A stretch of 28,267 nt of DNA. Source: Candidatus Velthaea sp. (GTDB lineage Bacteria; Vulcanimicrobiota; Vulcanimicrobiia; Vulcanimicrobiales; Vulcanimicrobiaceae). Position numbers and translations under genes: made by a program. The notes beneath the pieces were generated by a model that was given only the letters and a program-made list of their open reading frames with translations, was not told the DNA's origin and made no database searches. The stretch lies in contig JBEKHC010000068.1 in NCBI GenBank assembly GCA_050012475.1, forward strand, positions 1 through 28,267, in the 5' to 3' direction. Numbering within the stretch: the stretch's first letter is position 1; each line of letters opens with the position of its first letter. Below, one piece after another: positions 2,578 through 28,267 of this stretch.

Positions 2578-3018
2578 GCCTTTCGATCACGCGCTGCTGC
2601 GATGCGACTAGCTGGATGGCTGTCCCTATGACGTTATCGAGTTCGGCGAAGTGGATGGATGGAGGTCTCCGCGGTTCGCTCGACTCCGTCCCGGCCGGCA
2701 AGCAGACCCGAGCGATTTGCCGTGCGCGCTCTCTTACGCCGTTCCAAGCAGTGCGCCCGTGCGCGCAACGTGGAGTTTATCGCGCATCGTCGCATGCCGA
2801 GGTATTTGCGGTTGGTCACGGTAGTGGTAGTACAGTAGTGTTAAAAACACAAGTAATACTAAAAACCGGAGCCGGAGACTAGGCTACTACTTCAGGTCGC
2901 GCACGGCACATTCTCGGACCCCGGGACGGCGACGAACCGCCACGTGCCACCCCGATCGGTCTTGGGTCTACGTCCTGCATGCCGGCGAGCCAATCGGCGA
3001 GATCAGCGCGGAAAACGC

Positions 3019-5463: not shown

Positions 5464-5824
5464 GCGCCGTTCTGCCGAGGGTGGAAAGGGAATGATGAAT
5501 GCATCGTGGTTACACTTGGTTATCGGCAGACGCAGTGGATCGACGCACGTGCGACGACGGGGCGGCTTACGGTGCAGCCGCAAACGCGACGGGTCGACAG
5601 ATCAAGTCCTCTCCGTTCGCTGGCAGTGCCGTCAGCCGCCGCGCCGGATCGAACCAGCGGACTTCGGCATACCCGCGATCCGCGTATAGGTGCAGCGCGA
5701 CACCGGTATTGGCCGCGAACACGTGGCGGTCCGGCTGTCGTAGCACGCACGCGCGCCTTCGGGCGACTCCCGCGGCGAGCGGAATCGAGAGCATCCCTCG
5801 GTTAGATCATTAAGAACGCTCGCA

Positions 5825-6010
5825 AATCCCGGGATCGTCAAATCGGTGATCGCGCTGGCCCGACACCTTGGATTTGCGGTGATCGCCGAGGGCATCGGGA
5901 CCCGAAAGCAGGAACGTCAGCTGCGCGCGCTCCGGTGCGATTATGCGCAAGGCTACTGCTATGCCAAGCCGCTCGACTCACACGCTGCGGCGCGCTTCCT
6001 CATCAAAGAG
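5825..6010 (+). pseudogene. C-terminal fragment of an EAL phosphodiesterase domain
   Basis: IVKSVIALARHLGFAVIAEGIGTRKQERQLRALRCDYAQGYCYAKPL matches the last ~55 aa of EAL domains. No EAL or DDFG motif is recognisable upstream. The frame runs on to 6160 with no recognisable similarity. Confidence 0.8.
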
Positions 6011-6211
6011 CAAGTGGCGCAGCCGGACGAGGGTTACGGGAAGGGGCGCAGGTTGAACGCCCGCCTCGGGTATAGGCTAGAGGCGTTGACCGCCGTTATC
6101 GGGGAACAGGAACTCCTCGCCACCGGTATCCCCGGTAGGCCTGGTTTCGATTTCCGCTAGGTATCCCGGAAAGCGCTCTTATCTTGGACGCAGCAGCCGC
6201 GTCGGGGCCAA

Positions 6212-7987
6212 ATGCGAGGACTAGAGCAGCAACACAAGTTCGCCGATTATATCACTATGGGAGGAAGCACCAGTAGCCCAACAACGGAGCGTCTTGAAGC
6301 ACTTTTGGCTGATGTCTCCCTCTTGGAGCGCACCTTTTTCCTTCAGCCGAATATCGACCTGGAACTGCTCGAAACCAAATTGGCCATCGCCCGCGAACTT
6401 CGGAACCCTCGGGTTCTGGCTCGCGTGCTATGCGTAAAGGGTCGCGCGCACGCCCTGTTGTCCGAATATACTCCCGCGTTGCTCAGCGCCCAGGAGGCAA
6501 TTGCCATCTTCGGTCAGCTCAGCCCGGAGGAGATGGCTGTGTGTGCTGGTTCCTTTGCTGAAGCGAAACGTGTTCATGCGAGAGTTCTTTCACATTTCGA
6601 TCGACTTAGCGAAGCATTGCCGCTGTTCGCGGAGTCGGTACAGATTGCGCATCTCGGTGTTGAGCGCTTTTCTTCGGACAAGCAAGGTGTAGATTTCGCT
6701 TTTGCTGCAAGCGCGCTATTTCGTAGCCTCCTTGGGTTTGGTGTCTGTCTCATCAACATCGACGATTTTGATACCGCAATTGACACGTATTACCAGGCTC
6801 TAGCTATTCCTCCGATCTCGGCTGAGCTGTGGCCCAATTTTACGAGCGATCTTACGATGGTCCGCAGCAGTTTGGTTGACGCATTACATGAGCGCGCAAG
6901 GCGCTTTCGTGAAGCTCATCAAGACGCCACCTGCGCGCAGGATCTCACGGCGGCTCGAGTTCTCCTTGACGTTGAGGCGTTGAGGCTTTCGGCAACCTTG
7001 GCCGGAGACAGCCCTGCCTTTTATGGACAATCGCTGTATTACGAGATGTGGGGAAAGCACTTTCTCCTAACGGGCGAGCCGGTTCAGTCTCAAGAAATGT
7101 TCGAGAAGCAGCTGGGGCTGAGCTCCGGGCATCTCTCATTTGACTTGGCCTCACGCAACGAAGCCTTGACTGGACTAGCTGAGGCGCTCCTTGCGCAGGG
7201 CCAAGCCCGTGAATCTCTCGATACGAGTTTGCTCGCACTAGCCGGCTTGGATGAAAACGACAACGTCTACATTCGCGCCAGAGTGCTTTTCGTTCGCGCC
7301 GAGGCCCAGCGTGCGCTTGGCATGCACGATGAAGCCTATGATAGCCTACAAGCGCATCACCGCCTGCGCTCGCATCCCAAGAAAATCGCAAGTTACTGGA
7401 ATTCCATTTATAAGAAGCTTACCGAGGCGCTAGCCGAACTACGGATCACACGAGCAGCGTTAGAGAGCCGAACTCAAGAGTTGGAACGTCTCTCGCTTAC
7501 CGATCCGTTAACCGGCCTTCCGAATCGGCGGCATCTCTACGAGCGTGCGGCGTCTGAAATTGAAAGACTCCACCGAACCGATGGGTCGCTGGCCGTAGCG
7601 CTCTTCGATGTCGATCACTTTAAGAAAGTGAACGACACGTACGGTCATGAAGCAGGTGATAGCGTTTTGATGAACATTGCTTGCGCAGCTGGTGACAAGC
7701 TTCGATCGCTTGATTTTCTGGCGCGACTGGGCGGTGAAGAGTTTGCCGTTCTCATTCCAGACGTTAATTTTAACGAAGCCGTCGCGGTCATCGAGCGACT
7801 TCGACAGACTATTGCCCAAAACGGGATATCGATGGGTGACGGGACCCGCGTGTACGTTACAGCGAGTTTTGGCGTCACGCGCTTCGACCCGGCTAGTGAT
7901 TCCTTTGACACGGCCCTGAGTCGCGCCGACGCTTTGTGTTATAAGGCAAAAGAGGCCGGCCGGAACAGCGTCTGTGAATCGAGCTAA
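6212..7987 (+). CDS. TPR-like helical-repeat GGDEF diguanylate cyclase
   Basis: N-terminal helical repeats and a coiled coil, then TDPLTGLPNRR, DVDHFKKVNDTYGHEAGD, I-site RSLD, RLGGEEF and KAKEAGRN. Alternative start at ATG 6257. Codon usage is more AT-rich than in neighbouring genes. Confidence 0.92.
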   Translation: MRGLEQQHKFADYITMGGSTSSPTTERLEALLADVSLLERTFFLQPNIDLELLETKLAIARELRNPRVLARVLCVKGRAHALLSEYTPALLSAQEAIAIFGQLSPEEMAVCAGSFAEAKRVHARVLSHFDRLSEALPLFAESVQIAHLGVERFSSDKQGVDFAFAASALFRSLLGFGVCLINIDDFDTAIDTYYQALAIPPISAELWPNFTSDLTMVRSSLVDALHERARRFREAHQDATCAQDLTAARVLLDVEALRLSATLAGDSPAFYGQSLYYEMWGKHFLLTGEPVQSQEMFEKQLGLSSGHLSFDLASRNEALTGLAEALLAQGQARESLDTSLLALAGLDENDNVYIRARVLFVRAEAQRALGMHDEAYDSLQAHHRLRSHPKKIASYWNSIYKKLTEALAELRITRAALESRTQELERLSLTDPLTGLPNRRHLYERAASEIERLHRTDGSLAVALFDVDHFKKVNDTYGHEAGDSVLMNIACAAGDKLRSLDFLARLGGEEFAVLIPDVNFNEAVAVIERLRQTIAQNGISMGDGTRVYVTASFGVTRFDPASDSFDTALSRADALCYKAKEAGRNSVCESS

Positions 7988-8193
7988 AGGATTGCGTAGT
8001 AGAACGTGCCGTTGCCGGCAAGCACGCTCTATTGGGTTTATGCTCGTCAGTCAGTAGTGCTGGACGTGTCTCGATCGAGGGATGAGCCAGCTCGACCAGA
8101 GTTCAAGATTTGCCGGTCTTGCCGAGTCACCGGAAACGCGGTGGCTCGGCCGGACTCGGATGTCCCTCGTGCAGCGGTTCTAAACGGGCGAGT

Positions 8194-14653: not shown

Positions 14654-16453
14654 TCACTGGATGCGCACGCTGAGCGAGAAGCTTCCGGTGTTGTTTGGGC
14701 TATTGAAATCCAGCGTGCCCGAGAACGTGAATTTTACGCCGGTTACCGTTCGATCGTAGTTCGCGGGAGCGCCTCCGGCGCCGCTCGCCGGAGTGTAGGT
14801 CCAGGACGATGTCGCGAGGTTCGCGTCGTTGGAGTATTGCACCGTATAGGTAAGGTTTTTACCGGTCGCGCTGACCGAGCCGAGTTGAAAATCGGTGTTG
14901 GCCGGGATCGGATCGACGATCGACACGTTCTGGGCCGGCATCACGCCCGAGTTGGTGAACAGGCCGGTATAGGTGAGCGCCGTTCCCGGTGCTTGGACGC
15001 CGCTGGGAGATACGCTGAGGACCGTCGCGATCACTGGTCCCGGCGGCGTGCTGCCGACCAAAACATTCGGGCCGAATTCCGACGTTCCGTCGGCGGCCAG
15101 ATATTCGATTGCCGTCAGCAGGCTGCCGACACTTACGTTGCTGGGCGCGGGCAGCGAGAATAAGAAGCGGTTCGCCGTATCGGTTCCCACGCTGGTGTTT
15201 CCGCCCGGAACCGTGTAGGTGCTTGGATTTGCGTAAGTGCCGGTCGCGCTCGTCGTAAGATAGGTTTTCCCTTGCCCGAAACCGCTGGCCGGAGTCGTAT
15301 CGGCGACGTAGATTTCGATCGTGGCGCCGGCGCGCGCGTAGCCGGTGAAGATGAGATTCCCGTTGACGATCGAGGCGGCGTCGACGATCGGAAAGTTGAA
15401 CAGGTTGTCGCCGCCCGTTCCAACGCCGCCGCTGCGGTTGGGCGTAATGAACGGCGCCGTTCCGGTTCCGCCAGCGTCGCCGCTGCCTTCTAAATCGATG
15501 CCGATCTCGCCGGATGCCGCCGCTCCGTTCGCTGCCGCGATCGTACCGTTGGCGAAGATGCTGTTTTGCGAGATCGTGTTCTGCGTCGAACCGTTCGCGA
15601 CGAGGATTCCGGCGCCGTAGTTCGCCGTAATGATATTCTGCGAGATGATGTTCGCGCTGCCGACGAGCGCAATGCCCGGCGTCTGGGTTGGCGCCGTGCC
15701 CGCGATCGATATGCCGTTCCCGCTTATCGTGTTGTTTTGAATGGTGAGCGAACCGGTCGTGCCGCTCGCTGCAATGCCGCTGGCGGGGTTGCCGGCGATC
15801 AGATTTCCCGACACCGTCGAACCGGTGGTCGACGCAAGTGCGATCCCGGCATAGCTCGAGCTTCCCTGCGCGGAGCGAATCTCGTTGCCGCTGATCGTCC
15901 AGCCGGAGGTCGTCGTCAGGGCGATCGGCGAGCCGCTCATATAGCCGAGCATGTTGTTTTGAATCGTTCCGCCGCCGCTGCCGCTGACGGCGATCCCATT
16001 GCCACCGGCGCCGTTGCCGCTCGAGAACGCCGTCGCGCTGGTGCCGATGACGTCGTTGACGATCTTGGTTCCGGACGTGCTGCTCCCGCTGACCGTGATG
16101 TCGCCGCTGGTGGTGCCGCCGCCCGTACCAAAACCGGAGATCGCGATGCCGCGAACGGTAACGTTGCTCGCCGCGATCGCGAGACCAGTCGCGACCGACG
16201 ATGTGCCGGCCAGCTGCACGGTCGGCCGATTGATCGTTGCCAGGGCCGTGGATGCCGTGCCGACGGTCCCCCCGGTGCCCCACGTCCCGCCGTTCGTACT
16301 GCCGTCGTCGCTCGTTTCCGTCGTGCCGTCGACGACCGTGCCCGCGTTCGAGATCGTCGGCAGTGCGCTGCTCACCGAGATCGTTGCGACCCCGGACGCC
16401 AGCAGGTTACTTCCGGCGTGCAGGCCGTTGTGCGCCGTGCCGTTCCCGATCAT
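14654..16453 (-). CDS. C-terminal segment of a frameshifted large exported adhesin-like protein: right-handed beta-helix, Ig-like domain and C-terminal DUF11-like domain
   Basis: Beta-helix repeats ([42 protein letters not shown]), GIDL..NFP, GTSEFG, then [31 protein letters not shown]. This segment has no signal peptide of its own. Confidence 0.8.
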
Positions 16454-17625
16454 GGCGCAACGCCGCCCAACGCATCGGCGTTGGTGAGGAACTGAGCAAA
16501 ACTTCCTTGGCCGCTCGCGTTGACGTTGACGATCGTGTCGAAATTGAAGCCGAAATCGATGCCGATGATGCCGGACGTCGACGGCACCGCCGCCGACGCG
16601 ATCGATTGCGCGGTCGTGCCCGTCGCCGTCAAACTGGTCAAGGTCGCGTTGCTGGTATTCGCCGCCGCGTCGGAGAGACTGGGCGTCTCGCCGCCGACGT
16701 GGTCGGTCACCGCGACCGCAGTGCCGCTCGTGGCGGTCGTTCGATAGGTTTGCACGGGGATGATTCCGGCCGTGGACCCGCCGGTTCGCGACGATGTCGT
16801 CGGCGTGACGACGCGAACGGTGTACGTGCTGCTGAGGTTCACGAGAAAGACGTAGCTGCCGCCCGTCACCGTGGTCGTCGCCGAAACGAATGCGCCGGCT
16901 TGCGAATAGAGTTCGACCCGCACGCCGGCCAGGCCGACGCAGCCCGCGGTTGACTTCGCCCGGCCCGAACCGCCGCCGTAGTTGACATCCTCGAACACGG
17001 CTCCGGAGAGCGCTACCTGCCCGAAGCTCAGATAGTACGAGCCCGGGGCGCTGGCATTCACGGTCGCGCCGCAAAACGACGCGTTGCACGTTAGCGCGAT
17101 CGGAACCAGCGCCGCGGGAGTCTGGAACGTCGGATCGCCGAGGGACACCCAGAGCTGCGGATTCGGGATGCCCGTGAACGTGTTGGCCGGTACTTGGATG
17201 GCGATCTGCGAGGTATTGGTCAACTGCGCGAGCCAGACGCGCGCCATCCGGTAGATGCCCGAATAGTTGGCCATCGTCGTCGAACCGCCGTTGTCGCCCC
17301 AGACCAAAAACGTCTTGTCGCTGCCGAACGCCGCGTTTGCCGTCTGCGACGCCGTCGAGACCGACGTCCCGGTGGAGAACGTAATATCGACGGTGTTTCC
17401 GCTGGCGACCGAATTGATCGAGTGTGAAACGCGCTGATCCAGACCCGATGCGTCGTCGCGCCCGATCGCTTCCATATCGTGCTGATAGGTCGCGTTCCCC
17501 GTCCAGATGATCGCGCCGTTGCTGGCGTAGTAGTTCTCGGCAACGCTGGTATTCGTTTGCGCGTTGTAGCCCAGCGTTATGCCGTATTTGATCGCCAAGT
17601 ACGATCGGATCTGCTGGATCTGCGT
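16450..17625 (-). CDS. Middle segment of the same frameshifted protein (end of LamG-like domain, accessory beta-domain, SdrD-B-like domain)
   Basis: [66 protein letters not shown], and [27 protein letters not shown]. Confidence 0.78.
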
Positions 17626-18491
17626 CCCGTCAGCGCCGCAGCAAGATTTTTGTAATAGACGATCTCATCGATCGAGCCGGTGAAGAGGTTTCCCGTTGCA
17701 CCGTTCGAAGTGCGGCCGCCGAGGTCGAACTGCGCTGTCGCGGTCACCGCGCCCGCTGGTGAAACCGAGGTGCTGATGCCGTTTTGCGAGATCGTCGCGC
17801 CCGTGCCGGAACCGGCCGCGGAGTAGGCATCATCGCTCTGAATCGTCGTCCCGGCGGGGACGGAAAACGAACCTTGGCCCTGGTTCGTGCTGGTGTCGAC
17901 GCCGTAAAAGCCGTTCGAGAAGCTGAGCCCTTGGGCCGGGCCGCTCGCCCCATTGTAACCCGAGAGGACGTCGCCGAATGACGTCGCGGGCGGCGCGGCG
18001 ACGCTCGAATTGGAAACCGCGAAAATATAGCTGTTGGCGCCCGCGAACGCGCTCGCTGAAAGCGAACCGCGCAGCCACTGCGTCGCGCCGTCGAACCTCA
18101 GGCCGGCATTGTAGTTGGCATCTTGCGAAAGTGCGCCCGGGCTGACGGCACCGCTGGGCGGCGATGCGGTGACGGCCGATGAGCTGTGGTCCGTCCACGT
18201 GCCGGCGACGGAATTGAAGTCGCCGGCGCGATACCACAGCGTCGGCGCGACGCCGCCGGGCCCGACGGTCGTGGTCGACGCCTGGGCACGCGCCGCGACC
18301 AACGACAAAAAGACGACGAGGCAAACGAGCCATGCTGCTGCTGGGCCGCCCGCACTCCGTACTCGTGGCCCGGCATTGCGCGCTGCGGGCTTCGGGCTCG
18401 GTCCGGGCATCAGGGCGAAGTGGCCGCCGATCCGTTCGAAAGCGAATGCTTCATGCCTGTCTTCATCGGCAGCATTGCCGGGAACGTTCAT
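17577..18491 (-). CDS. N-terminal segment of the frameshifted adhesin: signal peptide and LamG/concanavalin-A-like domain
   Basis: Hydrophobic signal [18 protein letters not shown], then [25 protein letters not shown] and [15 protein letters not shown]. The frame shifts at about 17626. The start is uncertain (18491 or a later ATG). Confidence 0.78.
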
Positions 18492-18525
18492 GTCGCCTGC
18501 TCTCGCGTCGAAAGAACGCGCGTTG

Positions 18526-20682
18526 CTATTTCACTTGGACCATGAAGGAGACGGTGCCGCTGGTGTTCGCTGCGAGCGATGCGATCGTGTCGGTGAATTT
18601 CGTCGAACCGGCGGCCGTTCCGCCGCTGTAGCCGGCGAGCGTTCCGCCATTCGAATCAACCGGCGTCGCGTATAAACCGTTCGTGTTCGCGGCCCAGTTG
18701 TTCGTGTAGGCCGTGCCGCCCGATCCGCCGCTTGCGGTGCCGTCTTCGGTGATCACGACGTTGCTGGCGCTGAGCGCAACGCTGTTCGTGCCGCCGGCCG
18801 GCGACACGTTTTTGTAGGTCACGGTGTATTGCACGCAATCGCCGGGTTTGGCGGTCGTTGCATTGGCGGTGAACGAGGGGCTTCCCGAGCACGCTTGGCC
18901 CGAGGCGACGGCAACGCTCTTGACGAGTTGAAGGAAGCCGCCCACGAGGAACTCGTCGTTGGTCACGTCAGACTTCGTTGCGTCGTTGCCCGACGTTGCG
19001 GTGACCGGCACATCATAGGGCGAGAAGGCGGTGAACGTCGTGGCGCTGGCCGGCGGCGTCAAGACGACGTAGTACGTCACCGTCGCGGCCGAGCCGACGG
19101 CCAGCGTGGTTATCGCCGATCCGCCCGGCGTTGCTTTGAACGTTACCGTCCAGCCGGAGGGCAGCGCCGTGTTCGTGCTCGTGAGCGTGAACGTATCGTT
19201 GGTGTTCCCCGTGTTCTCGACGCTGTTGGTGAACGAAATGGACGCCGCATTCGCGGGCACGCTGACGGTGGATCCGTTGACCGTGCTGGTCAGGTTGCCG
19301 CCGTTGGTATAGCTCACGACCGTGTAGTCCGTCGCCGTGGTGCCGTCGGCACCAGTCGCGCCCGGGTTTGCGTTCGGGCCGTTGAGCACGGCTGCCGTGG
19401 TGGCCGCCGCCGCTGCCGAGGCCGAGGCCGCGCCGTTGAGCGTTGCGGTGGTGTTGGCGATCGCCGGAGCCGTTTGCGTCGTCGTCGCGCTCTCGGTGTT
19501 GGCGATCGTCGTCAGGGTGATGCCTGGGCCTTCGATGAAACCCGAGCTATCGCCGAAGAGCGAGTTGGCGACGTCGGTGACCGCGGTCGCGTTGCCCGCG
19601 CCGCTCGCCGCCGACGACGTCAGCGAGAAGTTGAACGACAGCTGCGGGGTCGGAACCGAACCATGCGACGAACCCGCGTTCGCGCTGAACGCCCCGACGC
19701 CGGTGGACGGAACCCATACGCCGATGTAGGCCGCACCGGTTTGGGTGGTGGTCCAGGTCGTGCCGTCGATGGAATAGATGAATTGCGCGCCGGTCGGCTG
19801 CGTCACGAACGCCGGGGTGCCGCTGATCGTCAGCTGCGTTCCGTTGTACGAGGGCAGTTTGTCGGTGACGATGATGCCCGCGCCGGTAATGCCGGACCCG
19901 GCCGGTAACCCGCTACGATTCACCGCGACCACCGCGCGGCCGCCGCCGTTGGCGTAGCTGAGCGTGTATTTGGCCAGCGTCGATCCGCTGGGCGGGACGA
20001 CGGTGACTTGCGCGTCCAGCCGCGCGTCGGCAACGAGCGTGTCAGAGTATTCGCCGACGACGGCGGTCGAGGTCGCGGCCGTCGTCCCGGTTCCGGCGGG
20101 TTGGGTGATGGTGGACGTGAGTTCGGTCGTGATGGTTCCGGTCGCGCCGGAGTTGGCGGTATAGGTCACGCCGACCGTGATCGAATTCGTCGTGGCGGTG
20201 AGAAACGGACCGCCGCTGTTGCCGGTCGAGAGATACGTATTGACGGCCGCCACGGTGGTAAACGTTTGGGCGGTTTGACCGGGAACGCTGACGAGGTACG
20301 AGCCGAAGCTGGCCGAACCGCTGGTCACGCCGTCATCGGTGCCCTGCACGCCGCTCAAGGCGAAATAGCCCGAGCTGTTGCCGGCGTTGGTGAGCGTGTA
20401 CGTTTCGGTGACCGTGCCGCCCGCGCTGATGGTCGTCGATCCGGGCGTGCCTTGCGCGGGCGAAACGCTGAGCGCCGGCGCGTTTTGCACCGTCGTCGTG
20501 ACGGTGTTCGATTGCGTGGTATAGGCCGTCGCGTTGCTGTCGGAGTACGCTGCGCTGGACGTATTGCTGATGACTGTTCCCGCCGTCGTTGCGGCCGCGG
20601 CAGGAACGCTCAAGAAGAGGCCGATGCCGAGCGTCCCGAGCCCGGTCGCGAGTGTGACGCGCCACTGCTTGCCGAACGTCAT
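18526..20682 (-). CDS. Exported Thr/Ser/Gly-rich multi-beta-sandwich protein with DUF11-type repeats (putative major fibre subunit)
   Basis: Sec signal ending VPAAA-A and N-terminal AGTVISNTSSAAY. Internal TYTLTNAGN, IIVTDKLP and FTNSVENTGNTNDTFTL. C-terminal LQLVKSV..AKPGDCVQYTVTYKN..VVITED..LAANTSGTVSFMVQVK. ATGA overlap with the upstream gene. Confidence 0.85.
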   Translation of the reverse strand: MTFGKQWRVTLATGLGTLGIGLFLSVPAAAATTAGTVISNTSSAAYSDSNATAYTTQSNTVTTTVQNAPALSVSPAQGTPGSTTISAGGTVTETYTLTNAGNSSGYFALSGVQGTDDGVTSGSASFGSYLVSVPGQTAQTFTTVAAVNTYLSTGNSGGPFLTATTNSITVGVTYTANSGATGTITTELTSTITQPAGTGTTAATSTAVVGEYSDTLVADARLDAQVTVVPPSGSTLAKYTLSYANGGGRAVVAVNRSGLPAGSGITGAGIIVTDKLPSYNGTQLTISGTPAFVTQPTGAQFIYSIDGTTWTTTQTGAAYIGVWVPSTGVGAFSANAGSSHGSVPTPQLSFNFSLTSSAASGAGNATAVTDVANSLFGDSSGFIEGPGITLTTIANTESATTTQTAPAIANTTATLNGAASASAAAAATTAAVLNGPNANPGATGADGTTATDYTVVSYTNGGNLTSTVNGSTVSVPANAASISFTNSVENTGNTNDTFTLTSTNTALPSGWTVTFKATPGGSAITTLAVGSAATVTYYVVLTPPASATTFTAFSPYDVPVTATSGNDATKSDVTNDEFLVGGFLQLVKSVAVASGQACSGSPSFTANATTAKPGDCVQYTVTYKNVSPAGGTNSVALSASNVVITEDGTASGGSGGTAYTNNWAANTNGLYATPVDSNGGTLAGYSGGTAAGSTKFTDTIASLAANTSGTVSFMVQVK

Positions 20683-21164
20683 CGAACGACGACCTCGTAC
20701 ACATACCGATGGGACGCACCTGGTGCGAGCGGAGCGGCCGTGCGCCAGCGGATTGCGGTGTAGGTCGACAGATCCGCATTGACGGTCTTGACCGTATCGC
20801 CGCTATGAACGGTAACGGTCGGCGTGCTCGACCACGTTTTGCCGCTGTCCAGTGAAAACTCGACCGCTGCGTTGGCCGCGGCGCCGCTGTTCGCAACGTA
20901 CGTCGTCGCCGGCGAGATCTTGCCGCTCGGAACGAAATTACGAGCGGGCTGATCGCCGGAGTTCGTCGCAACGATCTCCCAGCGGATGTGTTCGCCGGGT
21001 TGAGCGGCGCGGGCCGAAACCGGCACCAGCTGCTCTTTCCCGTCGGCCGAACGCGTCACGTACGCGCCGCTCAGCTTCAAGGTGATGACCGGCTTGGCGA
21101 AGGCCGCGCATTGTGAAGCCGCAACAACCACCGCGGTGAAGAAAAAGACGAGGAACCGACGCAT
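20679..21164 (-). CDS. Small exported DUF11-like (conserved repeat domain) protein
   Basis: Signal MRRFLVFFFTAVVVAASQCAAFA, then AQPGEHIRWEIVATNSG..ARNFV..PATTYVANS..VEFSLDSGKTWS..YTAIRW..LAPGAS..YEVVVR. Confidence 0.85.
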   Translation of the reverse strand: MRRFLVFFFTAVVVAASQCAAFAKPVITLKLSGAYVTRSADGKEQLVPVSARAAQPGEHIRWEIVATNSGDQPARNFVPSGKISPATTYVANSGAAANAAVEFSLDSGKTWSSTPTVTVHSGDTVKTVNADLSTYTAIRWRTAAPLAPGASHRYVYEVVVR

Positions 21165-21382
21165 AATCTAGTGCTCCGCACGCAGAAATCGACCGGCGCA
21201 CGAAAGGACGTTACGCAGACCACATCCTTTGTATCGGCAGAATTTTACGAGTTCTCAGGAACAATCTTGACCGTCGCCCATCCGCCGTCATTCGTTTCGA
21301 ATGGGTTCGGGCGCCGATGCGTCCCCGGCGGCGAGCCGCGCGAGGTGCGCGTGCTATCGGCCGTCGCGGGGCGTACCCGGTG

Positions 21383-22159
21383 TCAGCCCGGTCCGGCGTC
21401 CTCCGGGCGCGGCTGCTCGAGCGCATCATCGAGACGATACCCGACGTGCGGTTCCGTAATGATATAGCGCGGGTGCGCGGGATCGGGTTCGAGCTTGACG
21501 CGCAGCCGCCGAACCACGCCCTTGACGTAGTCGCTTTCGCTGCCGTACTGGCGGCCCCAAACGCGCTGCAGCAGCAGCCGCGTCGTGAGCACGCGGCCGG
21601 CATTGGCGCCGAGTTCGGCGATGAGCGCGTATTCGATCGGCGTCAGGGTGACGCTGCGGCCGCCGACTTTGACCAGGCGCTTCTCCGTGTCGATCTCCAA
21701 GTCGCCGCAGGCAATCTTTTTCGAGCGAACTTTCCCCGCCCGGCGCAGTACGGCGCTGATCCGGGCACGCAGCTCGCTAAGCCGGAACGGTTTGACCAGG
21801 TAGTCGTCGGCGCCCAGATCGAGGACCGAGACGATGTCGCCTTCACCGCCTTTGACGCTGAGCACGATGATCGGCGTGCTCGACGATTCACGGATGCGAC
21901 GGCAGATTTCCAAGCCGCCCAAGCGCGGCATCATCAGATCGAGCAGCACCAGATCGGGTTCGTCGCTCTCGAAAGCGGCTAACGCTTCGATCCCGTCGAC
22001 GGCGGTGGTGACCTCGTAGCCGTGCAGTGCCAGTGCGGGGCCGACGGCCGCGACGATTCCGTCGTCGTCGTCGACGAGCAGGATCCGTTTCTGCAGAGCG
22101 CGCGGCCGCGCGGGGCGCTGCGCCTCCGCAGCTGGGATGCGCTTCTCGGTCATTCTCAT
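21383..22159 (-). CDS. OmpR/PhoB-family (KdpE-like) response regulator
   Basis: Receiver motifs ILLVDDD, DLVLLDLMMP and GADDYLVKPF. Winged helix LTPIEY..LLQRVWG..LRVKLEPDPAHPRYIITEPHVGYR. ATGA overlap with the kinase stop. Confidence 0.95.
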   Translation of the reverse strand: MRMTEKRIPAAEAQRPARPRALQKRILLVDDDDGIVAAVGPALALHGYEVTTAVDGIEALAAFESDEPDLVLLDLMMPRLGGLEICRRIRESSSTPIIVLSVKGGEGDIVSVLDLGADDYLVKPFRLSELRARISAVLRRAGKVRSKKIACGDLEIDTEKRLVKVGGRSVTLTPIEYALIAELGANAGRVLTTRLLLQRVWGRQYGSESDYVKGVVRRLRVKLEPDPAHPRYIITEPHVGYRLDDALEQPRPEDAGPG

Positions 22160-24651
22160 TCGCCGATCTCCGCCGCGTGCTCGGCGATCAACGGGATCAT
22201 GAAGCGGAAGATGCTGCCCGAACCAGCGTTGTCGTCAACCCAAATCCGTCCGCCGTGCGCCTCGACGATGCCGCGGCAGATTGCAAGTCCGAGACCGATG
22301 CTTCGGATTCCGGTGTTCTCGCGACCGCCCACTCGATAAAAACGCGTAAAGATATGCTCGCGTTCGGTGGCGCGCACGCCCGGACCGCGGTCGGCGACGC
22401 CGATCGTCATCTCGGTCGCGGTCCAGGCCGCTTCGACTCGAACCGGAGAGCCAGGGGGCGTGTATTTACACGCGTTGTCGAGCAGATTATACAGCACTTG
22501 GACGAAGCGGTCTTTGTCCACGAACAGCAGCGGCGGATCGGGCGGAATCGCAAAGCGCACGCGCTCGCTGCCGTAAAGCGCGGCGATCCCGCTGGCGGTA
22601 TCGGTCAGCAGCGCCGGAAGTTCGTTCCACTCGCGGTCCAGCCGCAGCGCGCCGGCACCGATCTGCGAGACATCCAAAAGTTGATCGACCAGCCGCCCCA
22701 GCCGATTCGCCTGCCCGGCGATGTTCTGCAGCAGTCCATCGCGCGGCGAATTCACTTGTGGCACGCCGCGATCGAGCAATCCCTCGACCGAGGCGCGGAT
22801 CGCGGTGAGCGGCGAGCGCAAATCGTGCGAGACGGTGGCGAGAAACTCGTTTTTGAGCCGATCGGCCTGGCGCAATGCTTCGAGTTCTCCGGCGGCCCGG
22901 CGCAGTTGCGCGTTGCGCAGCGACATGCAGACCTGCTGCCCGATCGCGGTGAGGGTTTTCAGATCGGCGTTGGTGAGCGGCCGCGCGCGCCGGATCGCAA
23001 GCTCGATGACGCCGACGATCGAACCGCCGTCGGCCAACGGAACGGCCAAAGCGGAACGGCAACCCGAGGCCCGCAACGGAAACTCCGAATCGGTATCGGC
23101 GGTGCGCAAGTCGATCTCCGCGAGCACCTGCGGCTCTCCCGTTGCGGCGACGGTGGCCGCCAAGCCGGTCACGCCGTGTCCGGCTGCGGCAATGCGCAAA
23201 ACGTCGGCCGCCGATTCTTCGATTCCAGCGTGTGCTGCGAAGCGCAGCCGTTGCCGGTCGTCATCGTACAAGAAGAGCAATCCCGCATCCAGATCCATGA
23301 CCCGCACGATACAGCTGAGTAACCGCACGACGTGCGCCGCGGGATCCGAGAGTTCACCCAGCAGCCCAGCGATCGCGTTGATCGCTTCGACGTGCCGGTT
23401 GTGCTGACGCAGCGCATCGAACAGCAGCGCGTTTTCGATCGCCGTTGCGGCTTGCGGCATGAGCGCGAACGCACGGCGCAGGTCCTCGAAGTGCCAGTGC
23501 CCGACGGTTTGCCGCAGTGCTGCGACGAAGCCTACGATTCCGCGCGCCGTCGAAAGCGGCAGCAACGCCACGGAACGCACGTCGGCCGCTTCGAGTTGCA
23601 CGTCCGCCAAGAGCGGCATCGCGCGAACGTCTTCGGCGATGATCGGTTCGCCGCGCTCGCGCAAGGCATCCACGATCTCGGGCTTGGCGAGCAAGGCGTT
23701 GAGTTCGTAGCCCGGCGCGTCGATCGACCAGGGCGGCGCATAGCGCCCCTTCGCGCCGCCGTCGCCGAACAAACACACCGCCGCACGTTCGACGTGGAGC
23801 AGAGCTGCGGTTTGCTCGGCGACGGTGCGCAGCGTGACATCCAGATCGAGGCTTGCGCTCATCGTTCCTCCGGCGAGCGTGAGAAGCATTGCGTCGCTGG
23901 GGCTGGACTCGAGCGCGGGCTGCGGCAGGCGGGCGGGAACGGAGGGAAACGGCGCCCGGCGGGTGCTCCCGGCGCCGATGACGCGTAATTGTTCTTCGAT
24001 CTCCAGTGCGTTGATGGCGAGCAAGCTCATGAGGTACGAGCGGATGAGGCGGTAATCGCCGGTGATGTCGAGCACCCCGATGACTTCGGCCGTGTACGGA
24101 TCGCGGATCGGCGCGGCGGTGCATGTGAGATCGGTCCAGCCGTCGCAGAAATGTTCGGCAGCCATGAGTTGGACGGGCCGGCGATCCGCGAGCGCAGTTC
24201 CGATCGCATTGGTGCCGGCAGCCGATTCGCTCCAGTTGCCGCCCGGAATGAAGTCGATCCGTTCGAGCCGGCGGCGCACCGAGGCGTCGCCGGCGACGCG
24301 CAGGATGCAGCCGTGTTTATCCGTGAGCACGACGGCGTAACCGGAGTCGGCGAGATGGTTGACCAACCGATCGATGACCGGGTGCGCCGCGCGCAGCAAC
24401 GGTTCGTTGGCCGCCCAAATCTCGCGCAACTGCGCATCGCGCGAAATCGCCAAGGGTGCGTTGCGGCGTCCGGCGTCGACGTGCATGTCACGGCAACGGT
24501 TCCACGAACGTTGAATGAGCGGTCGAGCGATCGATTCCGTGAGTCCAGTGGTAAGGAACCGGTGGCGCAACTGACTGAGGGTGCGCGCCGTGGTCTCGAT
24601 CTCGTTCGGTGATGCAATAGACCAACCGGGCGCTCGAAGCTCAGTCGCCAA
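22156..24651 (-). CDS. Cytoplasmic sensor histidine kinase: AcoR/MimR-type GAF, two further GAF domains, KdpD-like HisKA/HATPase
   Basis: IQRSWNRC, VLTDKHG, WSESAAGTNAIGTAL, EHFC..TCTAAPIRDP..GVLDITG. The GAF domains end in ATAIENALLF and MSLRNAQL. H-box SHDLRSPL, NLLDNACKYT, DRGPG and GLGLAICRGIVEAHGG. No TM segment. TTG start. Confidence 0.92.
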   Translation of the reverse strand: MATELRAPGWSIASPNEIETTARTLSQLRHRFLTTGLTESIARPLIQRSWNRCRDMHVDAGRRNAPLAISRDAQLREIWAANEPLLRAAHPVIDRLVNHLADSGYAVVLTDKHGCILRVAGDASVRRRLERIDFIPGGNWSESAAGTNAIGTALADRRPVQLMAAEHFCDGWTDLTCTAAPIRDPYTAEVIGVLDITGDYRLIRSYLMSLLAINALEIEEQLRVIGAGSTRRAPFPSVPARLPQPALESSPSDAMLLTLAGGTMSASLDLDVTLRTVAEQTAALLHVERAAVCLFGDGGAKGRYAPPWSIDAPGYELNALLAKPEIVDALRERGEPIIAEDVRAMPLLADVQLEAADVRSVALLPLSTARGIVGFVAALRQTVGHWHFEDLRRAFALMPQAATAIENALLFDALRQHNRHVEAINAIAGLLGELSDPAAHVVRLLSCIVRVMDLDAGLLFLYDDDRQRLRFAAHAGIEESAADVLRIAAAGHGVTGLAATVAATGEPQVLAEIDLRTADTDSEFPLRASGCRSALAVPLADGGSIVGVIELAIRRARPLTNADLKTLTAIGQQVCMSLRNAQLRRAAGELEALRQADRLKNEFLATVSHDLRSPLTAIRASVEGLLDRGVPQVNSPRDGLLQNIAGQANRLGRLVDQLLDVSQIGAGALRLDREWNELPALLTDTASGIAALYGSERVRFAIPPDPPLLFVDKDRFVQVLYNLLDNACKYTPPGSPVRVEAAWTATEMTIGVADRGPGVRATEREHIFTRFYRVGGRENTGIRSIGLGLAICRGIVEAHGGRIWVDDNAGSGSIFRFMIPLIAEHAAEIGE

Positions 24652-24755: not shown

Positions 24756-24887
24756 TTTATCGCCGCCTTACCGTTGCTTAACCTTTTGTTTGTACCCGGG
24801 GCGTAGATTAATTTCACCGCTTTTGCACGAAGCTGGGAGGCTTTTTCACCGCGGCCTCACCCGAGCAATGTTAGCGTGAAATTCTAA
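24756..24887. promoter_or_regulatory. Divergent promoter region with phased direct repeats (putative response-regulator boxes)
   Basis: TTTCACCGC occurs exactly at 24812 and 24844, each followed 11 bp later by a weaker copy (TTGCACGAA 24823, CCTCACCCG 24855). A second set, TTTAT/CTTAC/CTTAA, lies at 24756/24767/24777. Confidence 0.45.
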
Positions 24888-24918: not shown

Positions 24919-26025
24919 ATGAAAAATGGCGTGTTTGTCTTCGACGCTCACACCGGGGTGTGGGACGCCAGCGCAAAAAACTGCAAAAACCGTTTCGGCG
25001 ACGCCTTCATCGAAACGTTTTATGCGTTTCAGACCGGGTTCAATCCGCCCGACAAGCGTTGGACGATGGACTACGAGACCGTCTTCCGCAAGACCGATCC
25101 GGACTGGTACCTCGAGGAGATGTTCGTCAAAGGCGATGCCGACATGGCGATTCTCTCGACGCAAGTCCTCAAAGATTTCTATCATACCGGCTTCGTGACT
25201 GCGGAAAGTAACCAGCGCATGGTCGCCCGCGCACCGGAACGGCTGATCGCGCTCGGCGGCGTGGATCCGCGCATGCCCAATGCCGCCGCCGAAGTCGAAC
25301 GCCAAGTTCGTGACTGCGGCGTCAAGGGCTTCAAGTGGTATACCGCCGAGTGGCGCGGCGAGTCGCGCGGCTGGTCGGCGAACGATCCGATGGTTTTTCC
25401 GTGCTACGAGAAAGCGCTCGAATTGGGCGTCAAGAACATGCACTTCCACAAGGGGCCGGCCGTCGAGCCGCTGACCTTGCAGAAGTTCGACGTGCGCGAC
25501 ATCGACGAACCGGCTTGGCTCTATCCCGAGCTCAACTTTATCGTCGACCACGTGGGCCTGCCGCGCCTGGACGATTTCTGCTGGATCGCGGCGCGCTGTC
25601 CCAACGTGTACGGCTCGCTCGCCGTCGCGCTGGCGTTCATTCACAACCGCCCGCGTTATTTCGCGGAGATCATGGCGAATCTGCTGTTTTGGCTTGGGCC
25701 CGATCGCATCGTGTACGGCACGGATTTCCCGATTTGGTATCCGCATTGGATGCTCGACGAGTTCATGGCGTTCGAGCTGCCCGACGACATCAAAAAGGAA
25801 TACGGTGTCGATCTGACGGCCGAGATCAAACAGAAGATCGTCGGCGGCAACATCGTCCGGTTGTATGGCATCGACGTCGAAGCTCAGCGCAAAAAAATTG
25901 AAAACGACGAATTGGCGCAACGCAAGCGGGCGTATCATGCCGAAGCCGAGCGCAACGGTTCGGGTCCCAGCGCGCCGCCCGTCGACGGCCCCGGCCCGAC
26001 GGCTCCCGAACTGGTGAAACGATGA
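24919..26025 (+). CDS. Amidohydrolase_2 family metal-dependent hydrolase, of the type found next to prm/mim monooxygenase genes
   Basis: FVFDAHTGVWDAS, DMAILST..LKDFYHTGF, GFKWYTAEWRGESRGW, HFHKGP, FDVRDID..YPELNFIVDHVGLPRLDDFCWIA, NVYGSLAV and GTDFPIW. Confidence 0.92.
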   Translation: MKNGVFVFDAHTGVWDASAKNCKNRFGDAFIETFYAFQTGFNPPDKRWTMDYETVFRKTDPDWYLEEMFVKGDADMAILSTQVLKDFYHTGFVTAESNQRMVARAPERLIALGGVDPRMPNAAAEVERQVRDCGVKGFKWYTAEWRGESRGWSANDPMVFPCYEKALELGVKNMHFHKGPAVEPLTLQKFDVRDIDEPAWLYPELNFIVDHVGLPRLDDFCWIAARCPNVYGSLAVALAFIHNRPRYFAEIMANLLFWLGPDRIVYGTDFPIWYPHWMLDEFMAFELPDDIKKEYGVDLTAEIKQKIVGGNIVRLYGIDVEAQRKKIENDELAQRKRAYHAEAERNGSGPSAPPVDGPGPTAPELVKR

Positions 26026-26324
26026 CCGTTCTCGATCTCGAGGCGGTTCGCCGGGCTGCAGGTTCCACGCCGGATCCCGAGGTGCGCTGCTCGATCGCGG
26101 AATTGGGTCTGCTCGACGAAGTCGACGCCGACGGCGGCAAAGTGCGCGTGCACTTCCACCTGACCTCGCCGCTGTGTCCGTCGAAATTCGCTACGCGCAT
26201 CGGCCGCGACATTCGCCGGCGCGTCGAAGCGGTGCCCGGCGTCGAGTCGTGCGAAGTGGTCCTGACCGATCACTTCATCCGCGACGAGATCATCGATCTC
26301 ATCAACGTCCGGGCGCGCGTATGA
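26022..26324 (+). CDS. DUF59 / FeS_assembly_P (SufT/PaaD-like) metal-sulfur cluster protein
   Basis: DPEVRCSIAELGLL..V..HLTSPLCP, the DPE-x-T-x2-CP signature. ATGA overlaps at both ends. Confidence 0.9.
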   Translation: MTVLDLEAVRRAAGSTPDPEVRCSIAELGLLDEVDADGGKVRVHFHLTSPLCPSKFATRIGRDIRRRVEAVPGVESCEVVLTDHFIRDEIIDLINVRARV

Positions 26325-27175
26325 CGATGGCTGCCTTCGACGCGCTCAAAGGCCGGCGCGAAGCAGCCCGGCTCGACTCGCCCTCGGTTCGGCATTTTGC
26401 CGAGCTGTTGGGTCGCCGCTGCCGCGACGCGTCGTGGATTCGCACCTCGGTCGCGAGTTTGGACCGCTTCGCGGTTCTGACCCGGAACGACGACCTCGAA
26501 GTGCTGCTCGACCGGGCGCGGCGCGATCCGCGCGCGGCCGCCGATGCGCTGCTGGCGTTCGCGGCGGCGCTGCCGGCTGCGACGCCGTCGCAAATGGCTG
26601 CTTTGCTGGTGGGCCCGAAGCTGTGGTTCACCTTCAACGGCGTCGACGTTCCGTGGTCCGCGCTGGAGGCGGATGCGGCCGAACCGTCGGCGATTCGCAC
26701 CGCCCATCCGGTCGACCGGCTCATTCTCCTTGCGCTCGTCGGCAGCGGATTGCACCGCTCCGAATTGTTGCGGCTGCGCCTCGGTGACGTCGGCCGGCTC
26801 GACGCGGAGGGACGGCTGGTCCCCGATCCCGACGCCGACCCGCTGGCGGTGCGCTACGTCCAGCGCCGCGCCGGCACCGAATTCATCACGTTCTTCACCG
26901 ATCAGGCGCGCGCAGCACTGCACGTCGAACTCGAACGCCGGCGCCGCGCCGGCGAAAAGCTCGATGCCCGTTCGCCGCTCGTTTCACGGGCCTCGGGCGG
27001 TGCGGCGACGGCCGCGACCACGGCTCGCGCGCGGCGGCTCAACACCGCGCTGATCGGTGCGACCAACGCCGTCAACGTCGAGTTGTGCAAGAAAACGGGC
27101 GAATTTTTCCGCACCTGGGGACCGCCTGGCGCGCGGTTCAACGAAACGGACCAACACGTGGGGGAGACTGCATGA
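26321..27175 (+). CDS. Tyrosine-recombinase-fold protein, predicted catalytically dead (284 aa)
   Basis: Box I-like DRLILLALVGSGLHRSELLRLRLGDV, with His where the catalytic Arg of GLR should be, then ITFFTDQARAALHVELERRRRAGEKLDARSPLV. There is no HxxR or LGH motif and no C-terminal Tyr. ATG 26321 overlaps the DUF59 stop and the stop overlaps the ADH start. Confidence 0.75.
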   Translation: MTMAAFDALKGRREAARLDSPSVRHFAELLGRRCRDASWIRTSVASLDRFAVLTRNDDLEVLLDRARRDPRAAADALLAFAAALPAATPSQMAALLVGPKLWFTFNGVDVPWSALEADAAEPSAIRTAHPVDRLILLALVGSGLHRSELLRLRLGDVGRLDAEGRLVPDPDADPLAVRYVQRRAGTEFITFFTDQARAALHVELERRRRAGEKLDARSPLVSRASGGAATAATTARARRLNTALIGATNAVNVELCKKTGEFFRTWGPPGARFNETDQHVGETA

Positions 27176-28200
27176 AAGCCGTTCGGTTGCACCAGTATTT
27201 GCAAAAATGCGTCATCGAAGAAGTCGCCGACCCGCAAATTACCGGGCCGCTCGACGTCATCGTGAAGATCGGCGGCGCCGGCTTGTGCCGCACGGATCTG
27301 CACATCATCGAAGGCCAGTGGAAGGAGAAGAGCAACGTCGCGCTGCCCTATACGCTCGGTCACGAGAACGCGGGCTGGGTACACGCCGTCGGTTCGGCGG
27401 TTTCGCATGTCGCGGTCGGCGACACGGTCATCGTTCATCCGCTCATGACCTGTGGGTTCTGCTTCCCGTGCCGGGCCGGACACGACATGCACTGTGAGAA
27501 CTCGGCGTTCCCGGGCATCTCGACCGACGGCGGGTTCGCGCAGTTCCTCAAAACTTCAGCGCGCTCGGTCGTGAAACTCGATCCGAGCTTGGCACCAAAA
27601 GATATAGCGGCGCTCGCGGATGCCGGCTTGACGGCCTACCATGCCGTCAAGAAATCGGGCGCGCTCTTGTATCCCGGAACCGCCGCCGTCGTGATCGGCG
27701 CCGGCGGTTTGGGTCACATCGGGATCCAGGTGTTGCGGGCGCTCACGCCCGCAACGATCATCGTGGTCGATCGTTCGGAACAAGCGCTCGCGCTTGCAAA
27801 GCAGCTCGGTGCCGATCACACCGTGCTCGCCGACGGCAAACAGATCGACACGGTGAAGCAGATCACCAACGGCTTCGGCGCCGAAGTCGTCCTCGACTTC
27901 GTCGGGGAGGGCGGCGCAATCGCGGACGGCATCGGGTTCATGCGTCGCGCCGGAAGCTACTTCATCATCGGTTACGGCGGCACGCTCAACGTGCCCTTGA
28001 TCGACATCATCTCGACGGAGACGAACTTCGTCGGGAATCTCGTGGGAACGTATACCGATCTCGTCGAGTTGATGACGCTGACCGCCGCGGGCAAAGTCAC
28101 GTTGCACACCAAAACGTATCCGCTCGAAGCGTTCAACGATAGCGTCGACGATCTCGATCATGGCCGGCTGCAAGGCCGAGGCATCCTAGTCCCCGCGTGA
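27172..28200 (+). CDS. NAD(P)-dependent Zn-binding alcohol dehydrogenase (MDR), likely secondary-alcohol type
   Basis: GLCRTDLH, LGHENAG, structural Zn CGFCFPCRAGHDMHC, ADAGLTAYHA (Asp as third catalytic Zn ligand) and GAGGLG. RBS GGGGAG before ATG 27172. Confidence 0.95.
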   Translation: MKAVRLHQYLQKCVIEEVADPQITGPLDVIVKIGGAGLCRTDLHIIEGQWKEKSNVALPYTLGHENAGWVHAVGSAVSHVAVGDTVIVHPLMTCGFCFPCRAGHDMHCENSAFPGISTDGGFAQFLKTSARSVVKLDPSLAPKDIAALADAGLTAYHAVKKSGALLYPGTAAVVIGAGGLGHIGIQVLRALTPATIIVVDRSEQALALAKQLGADHTVLADGKQIDTVKQITNGFGAEVVLDFVGEGGAIADGIGFMRRAGSYFIIGYGGTLNVPLIDIISTETNFVGNLVGTYTDLVELMTLTAAGKVTLHTKTYPLEAFNDSVDDLDHGRLQGRGILVPA

Positions 28201-28201
28201 G

Positions 28202-28267
28202 GGCGGCGACATTTCCGCCGGCTCTTCGTTGCGCGAGGGCTCATTTGCCATAGCAAACTTCGCCCTC
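28202..28267 (+). terminator. Possible stem-loops after the ADH gene
   Basis: GGCGG-N8-CCGCC at 28202-28219, and GAGGGC-tca-TTTGC-cata-GCAAA-cttc-GCCCTC at 28235-28267. No U-tract is visible before the window ends. Confidence 0.3.

Follow-up and report, generated by a model that had tools for sequence, protein, structure and literature searches.

A catalytically dead tyrosine-recombinase derivative in a conserved amidohydrolase-DUF59-alcohol dehydrogenase operon, and its probable role as a protein partner of the amidohydrolase

Results

Genes and features of the window

The DNA analysed (28,267 nt; positions 1 to 28,267 of contig JBEKHC010000068.1 from Candidatus Velthaea sp., hereafter the window) was scanned over its whole length for tRNA and tmRNA genes, and none was found. 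Near its 3' end, the following genes lie on the forward strand: a gene for a PF04909 amidohydrolase-fold protein, AMH (24919..26025), with D9-x-H11, E144, H177, H211 and D269, the predicted binding partner of X; a gene for a short DUF59 (FeS_assembly_P) protein of 100 aa (26022..26324; PF01883), in which C52, D83 and H84 are invariant (58 of 58 aligned rows); the gene studied here, X (26321..27175); and a gene for a Zn-dependent NAD(P) alcohol dehydrogenase, ADH (27172..28200), 62% identical to the Rhodococcus ADH of an AMH-long DUF59-ADH-groL cluster. Divergent from these, on the reverse strand, are genes for a GAF-domain histidine kinase (22156..24651; PF01590 three times, PF00512 and PF02518) and an OmpR-type response regulator (21383..22159; PF00072 and PF00486). 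The same pair adjoins the cassette or the propane-monooxygenase (prm) genes in related loci, and the response regulator is likely to regulate the operon.

The initial annotation described X as an intact gene with host-like codon usage, joined to its neighbours by ATGA overlaps. The frame of X is indeed unbroken (26321-27175, forward strand, 284 aa), ATGA is present at 26022, 26321 and 27172, and the codon adaptation index of X is 0.735 (76th percentile; GC3 0.81) against a reference of 1454 long ORFs of the same genome, chosen heuristically. A 1299-nt contig from a public sequencing run, which may be the source sample, spans 25954-27252 without gaps and with 2 substitutions.

The contig ends in a repeated element (28212..28267), at which several unrelated contigs join. 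In the closest relatives (L001-L005 and L065), ADH is followed by prmA-B-C-D-groEL without interruption, and contig C107 of the host genome (G000; positions 1-4400, L150) begins with prmB-prmC-prmD-groEL, where MimD scored over the cut-off for prmD; prmA was not found in the G000 assembly. The gene order in these relatives and the start of C107 make it probable that the window represents the front half of a prm operon, whose remainder, prmA-B-C-D-groEL, would lie beyond an assembly gap where the repeat probably broke the operon. Elsewhere in G000, contig C10 (about 1300-5800, L151) carries a second soluble di-iron monooxygenase-like cluster with a reductase and an alpha subunit 26% identical to PrmA. 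As for the rest of the window, a run of long ORFs (718, 304, 382 and 161 aa) with little or no Pfam assignment and with DUF11 and SdrD_B matches occupies 14654-21603 on the reverse strand and is possibly a surface or secreted protein cluster. A ComM/ChlI-like ORF of 300 aa (1675-2577, reverse strand), whose match to the Mg_chelatase profile covers only positions 1-95 of 207, may be truncated. The GC content is lower at 1-1000 (0.535) and 6001-8000 (0.55).

Fold and ancestry of X

The protein of the window (P0001) gave no Pfam and no NCBIfam match as a single sequence, and PF00589 was matched by 21 of 55 aligned X members at E<=1 (best 2.4e-5). An AlphaFold model of X alone had a pLDDT of 83.4, with only 52-62 in the C-terminal helix. 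In this model, residues ~19-114 (26375..26662) form a core-binding (SAM-like) domain with conserved R33-C34-R35, W39, R41, R49, K100 and W102, which matched 5vfz (VIA Z 8.0, rmsd 2.2, 84 aligned) and 3nrw (Z 7.1). Residues ~122-250 (26684..27070) form the first half of a recombinase catalytic domain, the part common to the tail of the long DUF59 proteins described below, and matched XerA 5hxy (Z 7.0, rmsd 3.4, 113 aligned) and XerD 5dcf (Z 6.8, rmsd 2.5). A C-terminal helix and an FFRxWGxPG tail follow (27011..27142), with N252 and C256 (codon 27086-27088); this segment makes the main predicted contact with AMH. The top VIA matches of both domains were recombinases, so the fold comparison suggested in the initial annotation found a recombinase fold in each. 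With Foldseek, the best match of the model was XerA (E 8.5e-4). Other VIA matches were MrpR (Z 4.9) and, at Z 5.6, a chain whose title is 'Phi3T SroF bound to DNA'; judged by PDB title, Ndc10 and QRICH1 are matches as well.

Archaeal-type integrases had been named as the closest kin of X, and three lines of comparison agree with this. The X profile matched eight archaeal-type integrase-like proteins with a probability of 99.8 over 223 columns, a value that is not independent because the eight were found together with X; a near relative, P0205, bears the name Nitrososphaerota integrase; and the Atlas structure neighbours of X include archaeal integrase clusters. The nearest full-length relatives possess the box II and GH motifs. 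X shares with the archaeal-type integrases (P0205; XerA 4a8e and 5hxy) the core-binding domain, the box I region, the hairpin, and the ITF and RRxxGExLxxxSPL segments over these 223 columns. It differs from them in that its box I Arg is unconstrained, HxxR is absent, and a Cys-bearing helix stands in place of the H/W and Tyr segments, before which the chain is cut; it also belongs to a fixed metabolic operon and not to a mobile element. X thus consists of a core-binding domain and the first half of a catalytic domain, with the fold and the ancestry of a tyrosine recombinase.

Residues lost and residues kept

As annotated initially, X of the window has no H-x-x-R, no H/W and no Tyr nucleophile; there is no Tyr after residue 179. 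Of 134 relatives, 8 have H-x-x-R beyond residue 200, in differing sequence contexts. The reading of box I as GLH in place of GLR holds for this protein (H145), but the Arg is not lost throughout: the column is mixed in 135 aligned relatives (H 72, R 25, Y 11, Q 10, T 7), so the position is unconstrained. Likewise, the WGPPG word is present near the C-terminus, but the protein runs 14 residues beyond it. The C-terminal Cys to which attention had been drawn (Cys256) is conserved, and a second one, C34 (126 of 135), had been overlooked. C256, R41, W102 and E148 are invariant (135/135), N252 is nearly so (134/135), and R257 is kept in 109 of 135. Aligned members end a median of 29 residues past Cys256 and are basic (median pI 9.8). 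The nucleophile-bearing segment is absent.

A remodelled box II helix, of which R257 might be a remnant, was considered for the C-terminal tail and rejected as not significant: 6 of 100 shuffles scored equally, and only the GxPG word aligned. The idea is a lead only. The proteins P0163, P0173, P0155 and P0167 form a divergent subfamily, in part fused to DUF59, that keeps Cys256 and has neither Cys34 nor the FFRxWG tail; its members are possible intermediates.

Gene order, distribution and selection

Among 8000 scored candidates, 165 homologues of X were found, and the best 120 of these are 50-76% identical to X and mostly about 285 aa long. A scan of genome contigs with the single sequence gave no X locus; an alignment-based scan gave 143 loci, with near-duplicates included, and an X match was present in 143 of the 144 loci that include the window. 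One locus within these counts (L020, genome G012) is flagged as unpublished, and no conclusion rests on it. The loci are labelled Vulcanimicrobiota, Chloroflexota and Actinomycetota, with single Pseudomonadota, Nitrospinota and Myxococcota bins. The module is patchy, since a search of 200 further genomes sampled from the phylum found no X.

The order amidohydrolase-DUF59-X-ADH, noticed in the window, is conserved. Of the testable loci, 125 of 126 have DUF59 directly upstream of X and 110 of 111 have AMH-DUF59 there; ADH is downstream in 124 of 130, three of the exceptions having ADH shifted upstream. The -4 overlap between DUF59 and X was seen in 55 of the 59 loci listed. X is thus strictly co-inherited with AMH and DUF59. 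The dN/dS ratio of X was 0.05-0.46 in the 14 closest pairs, with a median of 0.42 over 202 of 1953 pairs and a maximum of 1.03, as estimated by a simple counting method on GC-rich genes; the adjoining genes gave 0.22-0.36, so X evolves faster than they do. These ratios, mostly below 1, indicate purifying selection on the coding sequence of X. The notion of a one-off decaying insertion is refuted by the gene order, the dN/dS values and the number of homologues.

Propane-monooxygenase genes are present in 24 and pmoCAB in 8 of the 143 loci. When the loci with 5 kb on both sides were taken (n=42), 12 had prm, 2 had pmo and 28 had neither. Genome searches gave PrmA in 9 of 47 and pmoA in 4 of 46, in sets that were chosen mostly for having no visible monooxygenase and are mostly incomplete; neither was found in the complete Ktedonosporobacter genome. 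An obligate linkage of the cassette to a monooxygenase is ruled out by these numbers. No common gene was found among 74 neighbour proteins of the monooxygenase-free loci. Genes related to small substrates near X include DhaKL (5 loci) and an acetate-transporter family gene (6 loci), and aquaporin or DJ-1 genes adjoin clusters of the long DUF59 type; together with prm and pmo, these neighbours point to small oxygenated substrates. In L032, L035, L090, L092, L110, L116, L128 and L139 (Actinomycetota bins and metagenome contigs), the cassette adjoins pmoCAB/amoCAB-like copper monooxygenase genes, and L035 contains both the X module and a long-DUF59 module.

A homologous domain in long DUF59 proteins

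Relatives of AMH with 45-50% identity are found on plasmids of Thermomicrobium, Rhodococcus, haloarchaea, Peribacillus, Bradyrhizobium, Aminobacter and Caballeronia, where they adjoin a protein of 230-280 aa annotated as 'iron-sulfur cluster assembly protein' (long DUF59). In the clusters of the last four genera, AMH and long DUF59 have no annotated ADH alongside. The C-terminal tail of the long protein (135-175 aa) has no core-binding domain and retains an invariant Cys, which aligns with Cys256 of X; both the DUF59 Cys and the tail Cys are present in 53 of 53 long proteins.

The tail was compared with X using hhalign, and the probability was 81.5 with 6 rows and 94.9 with 53 mostly different rows; with the larger set it was 95.8 (score 59, against a maximum of 22 for shuffled alignments). 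Compared with integrases directly, the tail gave probabilities of 94.2-95.9. An HMM of the tail only, built without X, found X proteins with E-values down to 1.8e-7 and the integrase P0205 at 1.7e-4, the best of 50,048 decoy ORFs being 0.099; X of the window itself scored only E 3.3. PF00589 was matched by just 1 of 23 long DUF59 proteins (E 0.11). In the model of a long DUF59 protein (pLDDT 93.7), residues 118-205 matched XerD, XerH, XerA and other recombinase-fold catalytic domains with VIA Z 4.2-5.3, values within the range common by chance and thus weak alone but consistent. With the same model, Foldseek gave no recombinase match below E 0.87, and an Atlas search with the tail gave no usable match. 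Natural fusions of DUF59 and X also exist (P0130, P0163 and P0173). X and the unannotated tail domain of the long DUF59 proteins in propane-monooxygenase clusters are thus homologous.

When 60 loci were chosen on AMH alone, 47 of 48 with a long-type AMH had the fusion of DUF59 and the recombinase-derived tail, full X was present in 9 of 12 with an X-type AMH, and the remaining 4 were cut by contig ends; no locus of the 60 had both forms. Seven of the 12 X-type genomes already belonged to the X set. AMH relatives occurred in 48 of 401 and in 59 of 401 sampled genomes. The long form is common: of 8000 candidates scored, 7804 matched at E<=0.001, plain DUF59 matches being counted among them. More distant AMHs adjoin a short DUF59 (about 120-145 aa) without the recombinase-derived tail. 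In the AMH tree, reconstructed with a quick method from 43 rows (30 X-type from 63 complete loci, 9 long-type and 4 outgroup sequences, the outgroup with long branches), the X-type and long-type proteins were sister groups (98 and 99), apart from the AMHs with short DUF59 (100). The simplest reading is one integrase capture before the X-type and long-type AMHs split. A third AMH family, accompanied by a short DUF59 with a D-P-C motif and no recombinase-derived tail, was observed at L037 (13684-15141) and L155-L158.

The amidohydrolase and the predicted complex

X-type AMHs have D269-F-P-I-W (30 of 30 rows; D269-F-P-I-W-Y in the window), and the N-terminal motif of the window AMH is D-x-H-x-G (D9-A-H11), the second His of D-x-H-x-H being absent from the X-type. 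The dinuclear oxygenases of the amidohydrolase fold (AROs: PtmU3, AibH2 and SfbO; PMC13154177, PMC10401708, PMC10811679) resemble it in their PF04909 barrel and N-terminal D-x-H, as described in the available parts of these papers. The ARO motif, however, also comprises a C-terminal D-x-P-H-x-D/E (PMC13154177, available sections), which AMH does not have; nor is there an adjacent Rieske protein in the window, where the partner is DUF59/X. AMH as an ARO was rejected on the C-terminal motif.

The initial annotation had suggested modelling X with DUF59 and the amidohydrolase. In the three-chain prediction, X was placed on AMH with a score of 0.85, the best of 3 controls being 0.00; in the calibration, 116 of 157 solved pairs attained this mark, as did 2 of 215 mismatched pairs, and these counts hold only roughly for a three-chain job with custom alignments, which is unlike the calibration. 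The runs agreed in at least 91% of contacts, with a partner pLDDT of at least 84. A confident contact between X and DUF59, which had also been envisaged, did not appear in this model, and this is not evidence against binding. The best modelled contacts join X 244-270 to AMH 29-41, 217 and 240-258, the C-terminal helix of X lying on AMH residues 24-41, 180-184, 214-218 and 237-263. R12, R13, R41 and R49 of the core-binding region also touch AMH in the model, so the old DNA-gripping face appears to be reused to grip a protein. C256 and C34 are absent from the listed model contacts. Conserved residues of X were enriched at the modelled interface (22 of 55 vs 45 of 229, p 0.002), an enrichment that is partly circular because alignments of the same family fed the model. 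No similar complex was found in sequence searches of the PDB. PF04909 enzymes often dimerise, and since AMH was modelled as one copy, X may sit on the surface of an AMH homodimer.

Upstream regions

TTTCACC-type direct repeats lie upstream of AMH (24812..24852, forward strand; copies at 24812-24820 and 24844-24852) and are conserved in Vulcanimicrobiota and Chloroflexota loci whose promoters are kinase-linked. Of 15 kinase-linked promoters, 9 had a GTGA/TCAC dyad with an 11-bp period (shuffle maximum 3), which was not among the top dyads of 31 kinase-free promoters. Judged from these motifs, the repeats are likely to be the binding site of the divergent response regulator and probably not sites for X. 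No shared inverted repeat was found in 46 upstream regions; the top dyad occurred in 5 of 46 (shuffle maximum 6), in a scan for simple 4-mer dyads, which divergent sites would escape.

Discussion

X beside described systems

The initial annotation knew of no described system with this arrangement. That statement stands for the combination of recombinase origin and partner role, of which no instance was found in the open-licence literature, and not for its components. The layout amidohydrolase-unknown-ADH-groEL beside a propane monooxygenase has been described (PMC6849523, in the text available), and the group V propane-monooxygenase clusters of the Gordonia TY5 type contain an amidohydrolase, an 'iron-sulfur cluster assembly protein', ADH and groEL (PMC6849523, PMC9213486 and PMC13677872, in the text available). 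In the accessible parts of these papers, the genes are given as predicted, as of unknown function or by annotation, with no link to a recombinase; TY5 was compared by its description. The cassette of the window resembles these clusters in its sister AMH (about 45-50% identity), its 62% identical ADH, the shared Cys of DUF59, a homologous domain that derives from a recombinase and bears a Cys, and, in related loci, a frequent linkage to prmABCD-groEL. It differs in that the partner is split here into a DUF59 of 100 aa and an X of 284 aa still with its core-binding domain, and in that the window AMH has D-x-H-x-G in place of the D-x-H-x-H of 8 of 9 long-type AMHs. Recombinases without activity are also known: MrpR, the SPbeta repressor, has a recombinase fold and no recombinase activity and binds DNA (PMC10516654, in the portion available). 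Cassette layout and dead recombinases are thus each known separately, and what is new is the link between X and the tail of the long DUF59 proteins, and the role proposed for it. No report of a recombinase reused as the partner of a metabolic metalloenzyme was found among open-licence papers.

Role of X

From the computational data taken together, the domestication of this tyrosine recombinase is real and ancient; its product most likely partners an uncharacterised metalloenzyme. It had been suggested earlier that X might serve either as a DNA-binding regulator or as a partner of the neighbouring proteins. The second alternative, with AMH as the predicted partner, is supported, and we regard it as likely that X is a partner of AMH. 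The regulator alternative received no support: no inverted repeat is shared by the 46 upstream regions scanned, and the sister form has no core-binding domain. That X is a domesticated, non-cutting tyrosine recombinase acting as a protein partner of the adjacent amidohydrolase-fold metalloenzyme is, as a whole, our preferred and fairly probable reading. Among the points against it are that X stays basic and that it keeps an entire core-binding domain, with which, judging by the long form, AMH can dispense.

X might alternatively have two roles, its tail partnering AMH and its core-binding domain binding DNA or RNA, so that the state of the enzyme or of the metal would be coupled to expression. 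Several phyla have retained the domain, which is missing from the long form; R33, R35, W39, R41 (135/135), R49 and K100 are conserved and several of them lie outside the modelled interface; the protein carries a net basic charge; and the 28 of 42 fully flanked loci without prm or pmo show no common regulator among the neighbours sampled. Against this, R12, R13, R41 and R49 are used against AMH in the model, and the 46 upstream regions share no inverted repeat, which leaves a double role rather unlikely. Regulation of the operon as the sole function, in the manner of MrpR (PMC10516654, in the portion available), has a precedent, and the matches of the fold to MrpR (Z 4.9) and SroF (Z 5.6), the recombinase fold of X without catalytic residues and the basic charge are in keeping with it. 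However, MrpR has both domains at full length, whereas X is truncated, carries an invariant Cys and is a predicted enzyme binder. A purely regulatory X is moreover improbable because it lies mid-operon and is translationally coupled (-4 overlap, 55 of 59), because a dedicated kinase and regulator with their own repeat motif are present, because the homologous domain is fused to DUF59 without a core-binding domain, and because the invariant Cys and the complex model would be left unexplained.

DUF59 and X might also constitute a metal or Fe-S maturation factor acting mainly on the monooxygenase (PrmA or the PrmB reductase) or on ADH, and not on AMH. The fold of DUF59 resembles that of CIAO2B and further Fe-S targeting factors, and prm (24 of 143) and pmoCAB (8 of 143) do accompany X. 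The constant partner is nevertheless AMH, not ADH, as the Peribacillus, Bradyrhizobium, Aminobacter and Caballeronia clusters demonstrate, and PrmA (9 of 47 genomes) and pmoA (4 of 46) are infrequent in genome sets of which most members are incomplete, the complete Ktedonosporobacter genome having yielded neither; maturation of these other enzymes is accordingly a quite improbable main task. A decaying one-off insertion, or a recombinase that is still active, could draw on the integrase ancestry, the patchy distribution (0 of 200) and the faster evolution of X relative to its neighbours. Given 165 homologues of similar length in a fixed gene order, dN/dS values of 0.05-0.46 in the closest pairs (median 0.42) and the absence of the nucleophile-bearing segment, this explanation is hardly credible.

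If X is a partner of AMH, the following mechanism may be proposed. An archaeal-type integrase would have been captured anciently and have become either a second subunit of AMH or a maturation clamp. The AMH segments contacted in the model would be loops at the active-site face of the barrel, which X would cap. The metal-ligand set of AMH appears incomplete, and Cys256 of X and Cys52 of DUF59 might help to load or complete an Fe or Fe-S centre, with DUF59 as the metal-supply partner; given that X partners AMH, a role of the Cys in metal handling is slightly favoured. Judged by its neighbours, AMH-DUF59-X-ADH might process small alcohols or ketones (C2-C3), in many cases following the action of a propane (di-iron) or copper monooxygenase; the naming of one exact substrate would be doubtful. 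A bolder scheme, which we put forward as a serious possibility falling a little short of probable, is that a single ancient capture of an archaeal-type integrase gave rise to a subunit of a new heteromeric metalloenzyme, that the surface once used to grip DNA now clamps the amidohydrolase barrel, that the new Cys-bearing helix and the DUF59 Cys supply or deliver metal ligands in trans, that the long 'metal-sulfur cluster biosynthetic' proteins, which number in the thousands beside propane monooxygenases, are shrunken, fused descendants, X being the least eroded form, and that the enzyme catalyses a step still missing from the aerobic breakdown of propane, acetone or short alcohols.

The comparison reveals a recombinase origin for a common unannotated domain beside propane monooxygenases, and the two genes at these sites, AMH and its partner, gain a structural identity and a testable role: their products should form a complex. 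The dead recombinases that could be traced here have remained in nucleic-acid roles, and the partnering of a metalloenzyme, if true, would be a different kind of exaptation. Should the role of X as a subunit be confirmed, it would be categorically new.
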